A DNA stretch of 63,622 bases, counting the filler, from Octopus bimaculoides (Eukaryota): assembly GCF_001194135.2 (NCBI RefSeq). It is 6 parts of 6 records of this genome, joined end to end, with 100 filler letters (N's around TTAATTAATTAA, not from the genome) between each part and the next. Parts side by side here need not be neighbours in the genome. Positions count along the whole stretch, not along the records: positions 7,403 to 27,744 come from NC_069000.1; positions 27,845 to 44,410 come from NC_068982.1; 4 more parts are not named here. The stretch is one strand, 5' to 3'. Position 1 is the stretch's first letter; each line of letters opens with the position of its first letter. Below, piece by piece: positions 27,400 to 38,760 of this stretch. Below the pieces are notes generated by a model. The model had not been told where the DNA came from, did not search any database, and was given only the letters and a program-made list of their open reading frames with translations. The position numbers and the translations under genes are program-made.

Positions 27400-27720
27400 T
27401 ATATAGTCTATTAAAGTCTGTCATACCGGCCATGACGAAGGGAAGTAGCCCTGAAACTCGAGTCGCCTTTATATATATATATTTATATTTATATATTTAT
27501 ATATTTAATCCTTTATATTGAACACTCAATATTTCATCTACATTCAATACTTTCTTTCATGGTGCAATCCATTTTTATTTTATTTTATTTTATATTGTAT
27601 ATTGTATATTATATTATATATTGTATATTCCATATTCTATACCCCACATTAGTTCTGCAGGAATATAAATAAAACATAAAAAACAGTGTTGGAACTCTTT
27701 TAAGCAAAATAATATATTCC
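27400..27720 (+). repeat. About 300-bp dispersed element carrying a hammerhead-like motif, copy 1
   Basis: Homologous to the reverse complement of 38460-38760 (atagtct.ttaaagtctgtcataccggccatga.gaa ... taatcctttatattgaacactcaatatttca ... ttggaactctttt). Confidence 0.85.
27428..27467 (+). ncRNA. Variant minimal type-I hammerhead motif (CA-UGACGA core)
   Basis: GGC-CA-TGACGA-AGGG aagtag CCCT-GAA-ACTCGAGT-C-GCC, with stem I GGC/GCC, a 4-bp stem II, an 8-nt palindromic stem III and a GUC triplet. Confidence 0.65.
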
Positions 27721-27844
27721 TCTATACACAATCATACAAAAAAANNNNNNNNNNNNNNNNNNNNNNNNNNNNNNNNNNNNNNNNNNNNTTAATTAATTAA
27801 NNNNNNNNNNNNNNNNNNNNNNNNNNNNNNNNNNNNNNNNNNNN

Positions 27845-28103
27845 TGTGTGTGTGTGTGTATATCTATGCATGTATGTATGTATGTGTGTATGTGTGTTTG
27901 TGTGTCTGTGTTTGTCCACCCACCAACGCTTGACAACCGATGGTGGCGTGTCTACGTCCCCATAACTTAGCGGTTCGGCAAAAGAGACCGATAGAATAAG
28001 TAGTAGGCTTACAAAGAATAAGTCCTGGGGTCGAGTTGTTCGACTAAAGGCGGTGTTCCAGCATGGCCGCAGACAAATGACTGAAATAAATAAGAGAATA
28101 AAT
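27845..28103 (+). mobile_element. SINE family 1 internal microsatellite, body and tail
   Basis: (TG)/(TATG) repeats then the family-1 body to aaatgactgaaataaataagagaataaa. Confidence 0.9.
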
Positions 28104-28558
28104 GAATAGTCATTACCAAATACAGCTTAATCATTAATAGAACATTTTACTGGTTTTTACTCATACGGCTGTGGTCAGGCTGGAGCGCTGCTTTTAAGGA
28201 TTTTCAGTCGATCATATCGACGTCACGTTTTGCTTTTGTCTGGTATTTATTCTAACTAATGGCCAGGTTACATTGTTCGTTGTTTTTTTTTACTAAGGGA
28301 TGCAGGTTTACACCTGTATTCTCACGTGCGCGCGCACAAACACGCACACACACACATGTATGTATGTATGGGTGTGGGTGTACTTTTACATGTGTTGTGT
28401 GTGTGTAAGTATGTGTTTGTGTGTGTAGGTAAGCGTATGTACACCGCGTCCTGGTACGTGATTAGAGGCGACTGAAAGCGTTGCCTCAGCAAATCCGTCT
28501 AACCCATGCTAGCATGGAAAAGAGGACGTAAAATAATGATGATACACACACACATATC

Positions 28559-28614
28559 GTGGCTGTGTGGTAAGAAGTTTGCTTCCAAACCACACAGTTC
28601 CAGGTTCAGTCCCA
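28559..28614 (+). mobile_element. SINE family 1 head fragment
   Basis: gtggctgtgtggtaagaagtttgcttccaaaccacacagttccaggttcagtccca. Confidence 0.75.
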
Positions 28615-28709
28615 TTATATATTTTTACGCACCATGTGCTCTGATTTTGGCGCAAAACAAAACCAGTTGCACAGTCAGAGACTAACGTGAACAATCATGG
28701 ATTTAAACT

Positions 28710-28774
28710 GGTAGTCCACACTGACGAGGCTCAAGGTTGAATAACCAAAAGCCGAAACCTGGTTTGTGGATATC
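28710..28774 (+). ncRNA. Minimal type-I hammerhead ribozyme with intact catalytic core
   Basis: TCCACA(28715-20)-CTGACGA-GGCT caa GGTT gaat AACC aaa AGCC-GAA-ACCTGGT-T-TGTGGA(28765-70). All core positions are canonical and stem I extends (GGTA/TATC past one bulged G). Stem III is pseudo-palindromic, and predicted cleavage is after 28764 (GUU). Confidence 0.8.
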
Positions 28775-29699
28775 CGTAATTGCATAATATTTTTATTTGT
28801 GCTGTTAAATGTTTTAATTCTTTCTGTTTTCCTCGCATACTGTTTTTCTCTGTTATATTTGGTGCGCTACGGTGGATTATTTAAGACTTGGCTCTTATTT
28901 CTAGCAGGTAGATGCTCATTAAGCATCATTACGCTTCGTGCAAATTTATATTTCATAGCTCCTTANNNNNNNNNNNNNNNNNNNNNNNNNNNNNNNNNNN
29001 NNNNNNNNNNNNNNNNNNNNNNNNNNNNNNNNNNNNNNNNNNNNNNNNNNNNNNNNNNNNNNNNNNNNNNNNNNNNNNNNNNNNNNNNNNNNNNNNNNNN
29101 NNNNNNNNNNNNNNNNNNNNNNNNNNNNNNNNNNNNNNNNNNNNNNNNNNNNNNNNNNNNNNNNNNNNNNNNNNNNNNNNNNNNNNNNNNNNNNNNNNNN
29201 NNNNNNNNNNNNNNNNNNNNNNNNNNNNNNNNNNNNNNNNNNNNNNNNNNNNNNNNNNNNNNNNNNNNNNNNNNNNNNNNNNNNNNNNNNNNNNNNNNNN
29301 NNNNNNNNNNNNNNNNNNNNNNNNNNNNNNNNNNNNNNNNNNNNNNNNNNNNNNNNNNNNNNNNNNNNNNNNNNNNNNNNNNNNNNNNNNNNNNNNNNNN
29401 NNNNNNNNNNNNNNNNNNNNNNNNNNNNNNNNNNNNNNNNNNNNNNNNNNNNNNNNNNNNNNNNNNNNNNNNNNNNNNNNNNNNNNNNNNNNNNNNNNNN
29501 NNNNNNNNNNNNNNNNNNNNNNNNNNNNNNNNNNNNNNNNNNNNNNNNNNNNNNNNNNNNNNNNNNNNNNNNNNNNNNNNNNNNNNNNNNNNNNNNNNNN
29601 NNNNNNNNNNNNNNNNNNNNNNNNNNNNNNNNNNNNNNNACACACACACACACACACACACACACACACACACACACACACACATTTATAAATACTCGA

Positions 29700-29858
29700 G
29701 AGTCATCTTCAGTTTCCACATTCCAAATTCCACGGTTGATAATATATTGGCCAAGCCGTGGCTAATAAAAGAAAGATACTCCCCGAAGGCGACGGGTAGT
29801 GAGACCGAACCCGGGAACTCGTAGTCTCGCAGCGAAGCTCTCAACCACACAGCTAGTC
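29700..29858 (-). mobile_element. SINE family 1 head (diverged)
   Basis: Minus strand tagctgtgtggttgagagcttcgct...gttcccgggttcggtctcact...ggaaactgaaga. Confidence 0.7.
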
Positions 29859-36217: not shown

Positions 36218-36382
36218 CAATGTATACATTCGATAGTCTAATCGGTAGAGGTGATTATATACATACATTCATACGTACATACATACATACATACATACAT
36301 ACATACATACATACATACATACATACATACGAATCGTTGGCCATTTTCTTCCTCCGTCTTCCCTTCTATTGGACTTTCCTCT

Positions 36383-36418
36383 GTTTCCGAAGAAGAGCGT
36401 CTGCTCGAAACATTAAAC
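36383..36418 (+). ncRNA. Minimal hammerhead-like motif (U4C core, extra A after A9), unit 1
   Basis: GTTT-CCGAAGA-A-GAGC gtct GCTC-GAAAC-ATT-AAAC. Confidence 0.55.
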
Positions 36419-36727
36419 CATCTTTCTTTCCTTCCCTGCGTATCTGCTAATGCTTTACATGTACCACGTCCGCACGTTGTTGTCTTTTGTGTTTGTCCTT
36501 GTTTTTTTTTGTTTTCTTTTTGATTTGCCAATTTATATGGATATACCAATGTATATATCCGATAATCTAATCGGTACAGGTGATTATATACCTGCCTACC
36601 TACCTACCTACCTACCTACCTACATACATACATACATACATACATACATACATACATACATACATGCATACATACGAATCGTTGGCCATTTTCATTCTGC
36701 GTCTTCCCTTCCGTTGGACTTTCCTCT

Positions 36728-36763
36728 GTTTCCGAAGAAGAGCGTCTGCTCGAAACATTAAAC
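36728..36763 (+). ncRNA. Minimal hammerhead-like motif, unit 2
   Basis: Identical to 36383-36418. Confidence 0.55.
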
Positions 36764-38247
36764 CACCTTTCTTTCCTTCCCTGAGCGTCTGCTAATACTT
36801 TACATGTACCACGTCCTCGCGGTGTTGTTTTTTTTTATGGATTTACTATTTACCGCACGCTCACACTGACCCGCGGCCTTCCGACTGACTTTGGAGTACC
36901 TAATTACATTACCTTGTTCATTCGGAATACGCCATTAATGCACCTTGATTGTGAATCNNNNNNNNNNNNNNNNNNNNNNNNNNNNNNNNNNNNNNNNNNN
37001 NNNNNNNNNNNNNNNNNNNNNNNNNNNNNNNNNNNNNNNNNNNNNNNNNNNNNNNNNNNNNNNNNNNNNNNNNNNNNNNNNNNNNNNNNNNNNNNNNNNN
37101 NNNNNNNNNNNNNNNNNNNNNNNNNNNNNNNNNNNNNNNNNNNNNNNNNNNNNNNNNNNNNNNNNNNNNNNNNNNNNNNNNNNNNNNNNNNNNNNNNNNN
37201 NNNNNNNNNNNNNNNNNNNNNNNNNNNNNNNNNNNNNNNNNNNNNNNNNNNNNNNNNNNNNNNNNNNNNNNNNNNNNNNNNNNNNNNNTGTGTGTGTGTG
37301 TGTGTGTAAAAAGAGAGAGAAAGATAGAAAGAACAAGCACAGCTCTTCTCCCTCCTCTGAGTATTGCCTGTGATTAGACAAGCCGAAACATCACACTTAA
37401 ACTCTCTCTCTCTCCCACACACACATGTATGTATGTATGTATGTATGTATGTATGTATGTATGTATGTATGTATGTATGTATGTATGTACGTACGTATGT
37501 ACGCACGTACGTACGTCTGTAAGTATGTATGCATGTATGAATGAATGAATGACTGGATAAATGAATGAAAGTTTACATAGTAATCTGGTCAGCATAATTT
37601 ATAACGAGAACAGGACGCACTTAAGACCTACATCCTACTCAAGAGATTTCGATGATAACCGAAAATTCATACAAAATACATTTATGTTTTTCTTCATTTT
37701 CCACTACAAATCTCCTGATGTCTATCGCTGTCTATAGTTTCCATTTGGCTTAATGGTGACTACTCCTAGTTTAAATGTTGATTTTTATCAAGAATTTGTT
37801 ATATTTTTTTGGTATTAATTATAACTTGTATGTTTCCTTAATTGTAGCCATTGATTTCGTCATAAGGTCCGGAGTTAGATATAGCGTTTTTTCTTTTTCT
37901 TTTTTTTCTTTTACTTGTTTATATCATTTCAGTGCGCCCATTCTGGGGCACCGCCTCGAAGGGTTTTAGTGGAACAAATCGTCTATCTATCTATCTATCT
38001 ATCTATCTATCTATCTATCTATCTATCTATCTATATTTCAGATATGCAATTTTGGAGGTATGTGTGTCTCGAATGTGAAAATGTATTAGAGTGAGTGTGA
38101 ATTTTATTGTACATGCGTGTACAAAGGTGTGTGTGTGTGTGTGTATGTGTGTGTGTGTATGTGTGTGTGTGTGTGTGTATGTGTGTGTGATTGGTGTGCG
38201 AAAATGTATAAACACTTATTTGATTGCATGCGTATGTATAGAATGTA

Positions 38248-38388
38248 TATTCTTTTCTACTCTAGGCGCAAGGCCCGGAATTTTTGGGGAGGGGGCCAGT
38301 CGATTAGATCGACCCCAGTACGCAGCTGGTACTTAATTTATCGACCCCGAAAGAATGAAAGGCAAAGTCAACCTTGGTGGAATTTGAA
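38248..38388 (-). mobile_element. SINE family 2, 5'-truncated
   Basis: tattcttttctactctaggcgcaaggcccg...gaccccgaaagaatgaaaggcaaagtcaacc. Confidence 0.9.
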
Positions 38389-38459
38389 GAATGTATATGT
38401 ATATTATGTGATTGTTATATTAGGACTGAGTAGTAAGGATGCATATGTATGATTGTGTA

Positions 38460-38760
38460 TAGAGGAATATATTATTTTATTTAAAAGAGTTCCAACTCTG
38501 TCTGTTTTTTATGTTTTATTTATATTCTTGTAAAATTAAAGTGGGATATAGAATATGGAATATACAACATATAATATAAAAATGGATGGTACAATGAAAT
38601 AAAGTATTCAATGTCTTATTGAATATATGGAATATGTCTTATTGAATATATGAAATATTGAGTGTTCAATATAAAGGATTAAATATATAAAGGCGAATAC
38701 GTATTTTCTATACCTTGTGGTATTTCATCATGGCCGGTATGACAGACTTTAACAGACTAT
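38460..38760 (-). repeat. About 300-bp dispersed element carrying a hammerhead-like motif, copy 2
   Basis: Reverse-complement homologue of 27400-27720. Confidence 0.85.
38692..38735 (-). ncRNA. Variant minimal type-I hammerhead motif (CA-UGAUGA core)
   Basis: Minus strand GGC-CA-TGATGA-a ATACC acaa GGTAT a-GAA-AATACGTATT-C-GCC, with a 5-bp stem II, a 10-nt palindromic stem III and a UUC triplet. Confidence 0.65.

Follow-up and report, generated by a model that had tools for sequence, protein, structure and literature searches.

A hammerhead-like motif with a base inserted after C3 in a high-copy, probably Penelope-derived repeat of Octopus bimaculoides

The contiguous core C3-U4-G5-A6-N7-G8-A9 is the hammerhead consensus as defined by Perreault et al. 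(2011, PMC3088659), who also described natural variants with insertions at positions 2a/2b, 6a and 13a, with an activity that is reduced but real. In one natural hammerhead, two bases added immediately 5' of C3 lowered the cleavage rate approximately 425-fold in 4 M LiCl, and the only insertions known near C3 strongly slow cleavage (PMC3088659). In animals, minimal hammerheads are found in Penelope-like elements; these cleave weakly as dimers (Cervera and De la Pena 2014, PMC4209133) or with their protein, and one of them no longer cleaved once its 3-8 pair was lost. Among the elements of this type, those of the Hydra clade (Craig et al. 2021, PMC8557442) have an ORF with the motifs RWK, DKT and CxCX5C and an EN without CCHH; their insertion at (TA)n is not diagnostic of the clade, since it is common to Hydra, Naiad and Neptune elements.

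The window analysed here, a stretch of 63,622 nucleotides from Octopus bimaculoides (GCF_001194135.2), contains two hammerhead-like motifs, located at 27428-27467 on the plus strand and at 38692-38735 on the minus strand; the earlier note had their coordinates, their sequences and both C17 places exactly right. Both show three stems in the type I layout, in which the ends join in stem I, with a stem I of 3 bp and a stem II of 4-5 bp. In motif 1 (+), stem I is formed by 27428-30 and 27465-67, C3 (27431) is followed by an inserted core A (3a, 27432), U4 to A9 occupy 27433-38, the 4-bp stem II pairs 27439-42 with 27449-52, G12 to A14 lie at 27453-55, and stem III is a perfect 8-nt palindrome (27456-27463; predicted self-duplex -10.7 kcal/mol) that precedes C17 at 27464. 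In motif 2 (-), the corresponding positions are 38735-33/38694-92 for stem I, 38732 for C3, 38731 for the inserted A, 38730-25 for U4 to A9, 38723-19/38714-10 for the 5-bp stem II, 38708-06 for G12 to A14 and 38695 for C17, and stem III is a perfect 10-nt palindrome (38696-38705; predicted self-duplex -8.3 kcal/mol). The contiguous core is broken in both copies by the extra A between C3 and U4, and G12-A13-A14, the A15.1-U16.1 pair and H17 are present in both (4/4 and 5/5 identical; C17 in both). The pair 10.1-11.1 that closes stem II is A-U in copy 1 and an A-A mismatch in copy 2, formed by the unpaired A residues that flank the stem (38724 and 38709), and this mismatch is a second departure from the hammerhead consensus, which speaks against activity; family versions without the flanking A residues, with losses at 38709 and 38723, exist in public reads.

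The motif pattern had two matches in the window and none in 100 dinucleotide shuffles. Likewise, with a structural descriptor that required a stem I of at least 3 bp, a stem II of at least 4 bp and the CA core, both motifs were the sole matches in the window, and none appeared in 150 simulated windows. No Rfam hammerhead family was found on either motif up to an E value of 10, a weak test given that a canonical-core motif at 28721 was likewise missing among the 150 of 153 matches listed.

Anatomically, the motif agrees with the minimal hammerheads of the dimer type known from Penelope-like elements, and most closely with those of the (TA)n-targeting Hydra clade. With the minimal Penelope hammerheads (PMC4209133) it shares a dimer-type fold with a palindromic helix III, an unpaired base after A9, U-rich or AU-rich flanks, and the occurrence as thousands of dispersed single motifs with extreme stem variability; in contrast, the octopus stem III is longer (8-10 nt), and a base between positions 3 and 4 is present in 0 of 56 aligned representatives, which were collected with descriptors that required a canonical core. 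The Hydra-clade hammerheads (PMC8557442, File S2) are also of type I with a short stem I, a stem II of 4-6 bp that is often mismatched at its base, and a self-complementary stem III of 3-4 bp, and several of these stems III start with ACTC and end with GAGT, like that of copy 1; the motifs lie on the sense strand, approximately 100-430 nt from the 3' end, in elements that target (TA)n, one family having a TA run about 30 nt upstream. However, the CTGA start is uninterrupted in all 34 listed rows, a loop of 1-3 nt takes the place of a perfect palindrome in most Hydra rows, the listed octopus Hydra-1 family has another motif and other flanks, and no ORF could be linked to the octopus repeat. The small Penelope-associated variants of Lunse, Weinberg and Breaker (2017), as characterised by their title and in a review, resemble it in their short palindromic stem III, dimer cleavage and Penelope association. 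As for the core-insertion hammerheads (PMC3088659), they also carry extra bases in or near the core and keep the catalytic letters, but the positions are different, and they are rare sequences, prokaryotic or phage monomers with stable stems, whereas the octopus motif belongs to a high-copy animal family. The published Naiad/Chlamys/Hydra consensus file contained none of the family motifs, although its line breaks may hide matches; identity with the published octopus Naiad or Hydra-1 consensus was rejected, as it was not found there, and an 11-mer shared with a coral Hydra element at its 3' end was not significant (7 matches versus 4.06 expected).

The motifs are carried by two copies of a repeat, both AT-rich and starting at (TA)n. 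The unique part of copy 1 (27405-27738, +) starts after a TA-rich run at approximately 27386-27404, and its end is cut (an A-tract, then the spacer at 27745); copy 2 (38446-38758, -) starts after (TA)n at 38759-38778 and stops at 38446, a point beyond which many other members of the family have a T-rich continuation. The regions 27386-27738 (+) and 38777-38446 (-) align at 74% over 364 columns (E 3e-60), so the elements are homologous as had been claimed, with a measured size of about 350 bp rather than 300 bp. An artificial spacer (27745-27844) truncates copy 1 and places the two copies on different joined pieces; hence, the 11-kb distance between them is meaningless. In public reads the family is high-copy, transcribed and heavily A-to-I-edited, with 5050 contigs placed on it in the DNA run X1 and 1064 in X14, a run with another organism label. 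Neither family motifs (0 matches in GTDB genomes, viral contigs and phage records) nor family copies (prokaryote, viral, metagenome and phage collections) were found elsewhere, and nine metagenome loci that matched a family 20-mer were rejected as chance, all of them being GC-rich DNA (0.51-0.64) with no motif downstream. Two runs labelled insect metagenome contain 0.26-0.33 of the query words; these were not counted as evidence. No RT or GIY-YIG ORF was seen in the window with ORF scans, one of them over seven frames.

A retrozyme or a Penelope-pLTR-like element had been proposed in the earlier note, and it is the Penelope-like context that is retained. The repeat could be a non-LTR retrozyme, that is, a 350-bp tandem unit processed into circular RNA; its size fits (approximately 170-400 nt; 350-390 bp in mussel), and monomer copies are known from retrozymes, which originate from Penelope pLTRs. 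Nevertheless, both window copies are single and not tandem (two loci readable in full; copy 1 cut by the spacer), their helices are of the minimal type and not of the canonical sizes, family copies in public reads stop at several staggered TA-rich points (23 contigs in X1 and 11 in X14 end in (TA)n at 38467), and no unit-length go-back joint of the kind that a circular monomer RNA would give was present among 15 of 20 joints, the element ends being outside the coverage. We regard this as the least probable of the explanations considered; the repeat is instead likely to come from a Penelope-like element that targets (TA)n, either as its 3' end or as a derivative that does not code.

The inserted base is the feature that sets this motif apart. 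Given that Penelope-type hammerheads are already known for a long palindromic stem III and for stems that turn over rapidly, only the insertion appears to be new here. The C3-G8 pair positions the general acid and U4 adjoins it, so a base inserted at this place should be harmful. In the literature covered, which included PMC3088659, PMC4209133 and PMC8557442, no insertion between C3 and U4 was found to be reported. With the base of stem II fixed, a hammerhead fold was obtained for 118 of 129 matches to the canonical core in viral contigs versus 1 of 44 with the 3a insertion; therefore, this insertion is not commonly tolerated. The CA-core pattern occurred at no fewer than 120 loci in viral contigs; five of these passed a loose stem filter, and in none of the five was stem III longer than 2 bp. 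In the octopus family, public reads support a family-wide one-base core insertion: no deletion of the extra base at 38731 was listed at 3% or above in the four runs examined, none of the 11 listed indels removes it, and the six T>C places of X1 are all outside the core. One stem variant seems to carry U in place of the inserted A (at most two of four contigs, in a reading beyond the median loose-end length), and the identity of the base may thus not be invariant.

A conserved C followed by a variable neighbour fits two registers. In one of them the second C would pair with G1.1 and the first C would be bulged in stem I, in the manner of 2a/2b, leaving A at position 3 to face G8, with activity through a mismatched 3-8; insertions of this kind beside stem I are known and weakly active (PMC3088659). 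We consider this register highly improbable, as in both dimers the second C is predicted to pair with G1.1 at a probability of 0.00, and loss of the 3-8 pair was incompatible with cleavage in the Penelope hammerhead mentioned above. In the register that we prefer, C3 would still pair with G8 and the extra base would be bulged out.

The comparison of the two copies provides the main signal, since the stems are the one divergent part between near-identical flanks (22/23 on the 5' side and 41/41 on the 3' side) and still pair. Stems II and III are wholly replaced, yet pairing is kept in both copies; the chance of a palindrome with fixed ends is 0.019 for the 8-mer and 0.005 for the 10-mer, and that of stem II is 0.005 in copy 1 and 0.0014 in copy 2. 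The claim that the stems differ in sequence and still pair, with stem III a perfect palindrome in each (8 and 10 nt), was borne out, and with it a structure-level constraint on a hammerhead-shaped motif. The stems had also been called fully covarying; pairing is indeed retained, but two sequences yield no column-wise covariation when their stems are of unequal length and exchanged as whole blocks. Nor are the core and the extra A the invariant positions, given that the flanks are invariant too. In public reads, loose ends give a third version of stem II, of 5 bp and with an agreement of 0.96 over 4 contigs; with an agreement of 0.75 over 7 contigs, they also give another palindrome of 8 nt, AGTATACT, with A17 directly after it. 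In run X21, the loss of one base at 38699 and of another at 38702, each in 7 reads, jointly leaves an 8-nt palindrome, as do 4 of 28 such pairs; a 4-base loss at 38698 also leaves a palindrome, and this was counted against, as 3 of 5 such deletions do so.

DNA template switching in quasi-palindromes is well established, and the insertion could be a dead mutation in a master that is copied in trans, the paired stems coming from cassette swaps with canonical relatives and from palindrome-perfecting template switching and not from selection. The swapping of stems as blocks between near-identical flanks is in agreement with this, as is the fact that most of the DNA aligned to the motif hardly differs from copy 2, which implies few independent events. 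We find it improbable, however, since several swaps would be required, each keeping the register, and at least three versions of stem II accompany the inserted base, the apparent U variant being one of them.

Folding predictions bear on the form in which the motif could act. For each isolated core, the MFE structure of the homodimer coincides exactly with the double hammerhead, in which the two partners pair with each other in stems I and III, and in the monomer the A15.1-U16.1 pair has a probability of 0.002-0.003; according to these models, the palindromic stem III is unstable in the monomer and stable in the dimer. Monomer folding z-scores (-0.81 to 1.17) are no better than those of shuffles and lend no support, and the dimer energies are not beyond shuffles either, 105 of 300 (copy 1) and 45 of 300 (copy 2) being as low. 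An alternative hairpin is predicted at 27419-27437 (+), where 27419-24 pairs with 27432-37; it engages the inserted A and would make the core inaccessible. In dimers with flanks, the probability of the core-blocking hairpin is 0.91 for copy 1 and 0.07 for copy 2, and that of stem I is 0.04 and 0.38, respectively. A bolder proposal would make of these motifs an active hammerhead class that requires a base between C3 and U4, numbers tens of thousands of copies in cephalopod-like genomes and escapes every standard descriptor; its fast-changing palindromes would be barcodes that let RNAs pair and cut only within their own subfamily, and the inserted base would belong to an off-switch hairpin. We hold this to be distinctly unlikely. 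That the two window copies form a double hammerhead in cis was rejected, as they lie on opposite strands and different contigs and have non-matching palindromes.

It could also be that the fold was kept while catalysis was lost through the insertion, the stems serving as a subfamily-specific signal for RNA dimerisation or for recognition by the RT. Several observations are consistent with this: a Penelope-like protein inserted in vitro without hammerhead cleavage, the uncut RNA being the main template; the two palindromes are predicted not to cross-pair (-0.1 kcal/mol); the 3a insertion is essentially missing among the viral hammerheads tested; and RNA reads showed no place where many begin or end, the predicted cut included. 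Read ends neither show nor exclude cleavage, because a Penelope hammerhead active in vitro gave the same read pattern. The loose ends at 38691 (76 and 27 RNA reads) were rejected as cleavage, since they correspond to the AT-rich insertion of the copy-1 subfamily. Against a loss of catalysis, G5, A6, G8, A9, G12, A13, A14, A15.1-U16.1 and H17 are kept in both copies while the stems turn over, and the catalytic letters are also kept in the loose-end variants where visible; a bare dimerisation signal needs none of them. We judge it unlikely, though the likeliest of the rival explanations.

The explanation that we favour, with a confidence slightly better than even, is that a minimal hammerhead-shaped motif of type I, bearing one extra base after C3, resides on a high-copy, probably Penelope-derived repeat of about 350 bp and probably cleaves slowly after C17 only as a dimer. 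Self-cleavage would probably take place only when two like copies pair through the palindromic stem III, possibly in transcripts of the parent element that are tandem or bound by protein, and dispersed single copies such as these two would be mostly silent passengers. The insertion has persisted in a very successful repeat through several stem replacements. If the motif cleaves, the consensus of the hammerhead core widens, and surveys with descriptors that require CUGANGA have missed whole families, perhaps including Penelope-like elements that were reported to lack hammerheads; if it does not, the repeat offers a natural test of what Penelope hammerheads are kept for, cutting or structure.

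Both hammerhead-like motifs are present as the earlier note wrote them, with the predicted cut site C17 at 27464 (+) in copy 1 (motif 27428-27467, +) and at 38695 (-) in copy 2 (motif 38692-38735, -), and the extra A between C3 and U4 of the core (position 3a) at 27432 and 38731. The motif pattern matched twice in the window, which is animal DNA rich in AT and microsatellites, versus 0 in 100 shuffles; likewise, a structural descriptor with the core bearing this base (CA core) found only copies 1 and 2, and nothing in 150 simulated windows. The homology claimed for the two elements was borne out: 27386-27738 (+) and 38777-38446 (-) are 74% identical over 364 columns, the repeat body downstream of the motif is identical in 201 of 235 aligned columns, and a TA run opens both elements 23 bases before stem I. 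Copy 1 is cut short, and parted from copy 2, by the artificial spacer at 27745-27844, one of five of 100 bp (the others at 7303-7402, 44411-44510, 54016-54115 and 62257-62356) that join the six pieces of the window, each a 12-mer carrying stop codons in every frame between two blocks of 44 N. High-copy SINE-like repeats, which look like octopus SINEs, flank the two copies (27850-28100 and 38301-38390) and occur in about a dozen other places; their shapes and the heavy RNA editing described below suggest that the window is octopus-like.

The sole wholly different part between the copies is stems II and III, which are of unequal length and without column-by-column alignment. Identity is 22/23 in the 5' flank, 10/11 in stem I and core, 4/4 in GAAA, 5/5 in UH with stem I, and 41/41 in the 3' flank. 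Thus the proposal that stems II and III differ and still pair holds in each copy, but that of invariance confined to the core does not, given these flanks. The chance values are 0.019 (copy 1, 8-mer) and 0.005 (copy 2, 10-mer) for the palindromic stem III, and 0.005 and 0.0014 for stem II. A dead master copy, its stems swapped or self-perfected, is a rather improbable source of this pattern.

The family was found in 20 of 24 listed public runs from 11 studies, the DNA rows carrying four organism labels; scans of GTDB genomes, viral contigs, and metagenome and phage collections gave no copies. Four of the 24 listed runs were aligned to copy 2 with an 80% likeness cut-off: 5050 contigs aligned from the DNA run X1 and 1064 from X14, a DNA run with another organism label. 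Summed depth in X1, which is not a copy number, was 0.84-0.91 million over 38690-38734 versus 47-277 for listed single pieces; the family is high-copy, and we infer roughly the order of 10^4. Conservation of the CA core stood in part: each of the 11 listed indels leaves the extra base and the preceding C in place, but one X14 variant has an apparent U. X1 has 27 difference places, of which 18 are visible and none of those lies within the motif; since all six T>C places are among these 18, A-to-G at 3a is below 3% in X1, while A-to-U or A-to-C could fall among the remaining nine. Because the alignment takes in only sequences at least 80% alike, and 38731 sits 18 bases from its end, divergent relatives with the canonical (uninterrupted) core would escape. 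Copy ends are staggered in TA repeats (38467, 38473, 38477), and other copies run past 38446, as backed by loose ends, the parts diverging from copy 2, of 101 and 117 RNA reads and 46 and 13 contigs. Beyond 38446, the hammerhead strand of many members carries a short stretch rich in C and a long run of T.

Loose ends also revealed further stem versions. The one behind 38708 in X14 (4 contigs, agreement 0.96, median 18 letters) gives, on the other strand, another version of stem II, 5 bp long and with a loop of 4 nt; upstream of this stem the core reads C-U-UGAUGA and the stem I strand still pairs, the inserted U lying in letters past the median loose-end length with at most two contigs behind them. 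Behind 38690, a loose end in X1 (7 contigs, agreement 0.75) shows the palindrome AGTATACT and then A17, with the core out of view. In the RNA run X21, 7 reads lack the base at 38699 and 7 the base at 38702; the two single-base losses would jointly leave an 8-nt palindrome, as would 4 of the 28 possible such pairs. Both As flanking stem II are also lost, at 38709 in 7 reads and at 38723 in 9; the equal counts suggest that the losses at 38699/38702 and 38709/38723 come from the same reads. A 4-base loss at 38698 leaves a palindrome, as do 3 of 5 such losses.

The family is transcribed: 741 and 608 family reads came from about 6% of each of the two RNA runs, X21 and X22, with heavy editing on both strands. 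Against the reference, X21 RNA has 55 A>G and 79 T>C places over 38446-38749, versus 3 and 6 in X1 DNA, and both strands look hyper-edited, the DNA and RNA runs compared being from different individuals. The stem III adenosine 38698 looks edited in 29/137 reads of X21 and 9/134 of X22, and in 0 of the DNA runs. No site where many RNA molecules begin or end was seen in the reads on copy 2 in the two RNA runs. Copies 1 and 2 themselves are probably silent.

As a control, viral contigs were scanned with a fixed stem II base for canonical and 3a-inserted cores. With the canonical core, stems I and III were also present in 118 of 129 matches listed (at least 126 loci), versus 1 of 44 with a base after C3, a match that looks like chance; therefore, such an insertion is not freely tolerated in hammerheads of that viral class. 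It is possible, although unlikely, that here the fold was kept and catalysis is gone.

In the accessible portions of the sources, Perreault et al. 2011 (PMC3088659) report lowered activity for insertions 2a/2b, 6a and 13a, and term changes near C3 unprecedented. The minimal hammerheads of Cervera and De la Pena 2014 (PMC4209133) are of the dimer type and only weakly active; their helix III is palindromic, the base after A9 is unpaired, and their stems vary extremely. In the part available, 0 of 56 representatives have a base after position 3, which their descriptors would exclude. The Hydra-clade hammerheads (Craig et al. 2021, PMC8557442, in part) resemble copies 1 and 2 in the sizes of their stems, the mismatch in stem II, their position and the (TA)n target; in contrast to the CA core, 34/34 rows of their list begin CTGA. 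According to the portion available of Frangieh et al. 2024 (PMC11167929), a Penelope hammerhead depends on C3-G8 and on its protein; insertion in vitro proceeds without this hammerhead, and no read ends are left at the cut. In the literature searched, which does not include the survey closest to the subject (Lunse et al. 2017), neither a C3-N-U4 core nor this repeat family was found to be reported. Other sources, compared in part, were PMC6765202, PMC11014351, PMC6155905, PMC10085705, PMC6466107 and PMC5625713. A retrozyme, for which bioRxiv 10.64898/2026.07.22.740005 and PMC7229834 served as partial comparison sources, is the least probable reading.

Two further hammerhead-like motifs occur in the window. 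The third, minimal, at 9256-9302 (+), has a U3-A8 covariant core, a stem I of 6 bp and a stem III of 5 bp capped by a single nucleotide; its predicted homodimer minimum free energy (MFE) structure is a double hammerhead, and its sequence is unrelated to this family. The fourth, at 28715-28768 (+), in one copy, is of Hydra-clade style, with a canonical core, a stem I of 6 bp and a long loop II; its stem III has 3 bp and is likewise capped by a single nucleotide. The window also holds an uninterrupted 343-aa rhodopsin-type GPCR frame at 25105-26136 (+; Pfam 7tm_1, E 1e-23), with neuropeptide receptors as nearest solved structures, and a DDE_3 transposase fragment at 812-1111 (-; E 3e-8).

As monomers, the two copies are predicted to reach the hammerhead fold at a cost of 7.5 and 5.4 kcal/mol over their MFE structures. 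For both isolated-core homodimers, the predicted MFE structure coincides exactly with the double hammerhead, with ordinary energies (105/300 and 45/300 shuffles were equally low). With flanks, the copy 2 dimer is still predicted as a double hammerhead, with a stem I probability of 0.38; for copy 1, a core-blocking hairpin that uses the extra A (0.91) is predicted to be favoured. No cross-pairing of the two palindromes is predicted (-0.1 kcal/mol), and copies 1 and 2 cannot partner each other. The mechanism that we consider most likely, by a modest measure, is that the RNA of a parent element, tandem or protein-bound, would bring two like motifs together by pairing of their palindromes. Stems I and III would then form between partner RNAs, C3 would pair with G8 and leave the extra base bulged, and slow cutting after C17 would follow on each strand. 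A bulged stem I with A3 would place the extra base differently, and seems quite improbable. The putative hammerhead probably works like a Penelope-type minimal hammerhead, and its parent is likely a Penelope-like element; it is not classed as a member of that type because its core is not contiguous. The surrounding biology is already known; an insertion at C3/U4 throughout the family would surprise a specialist.
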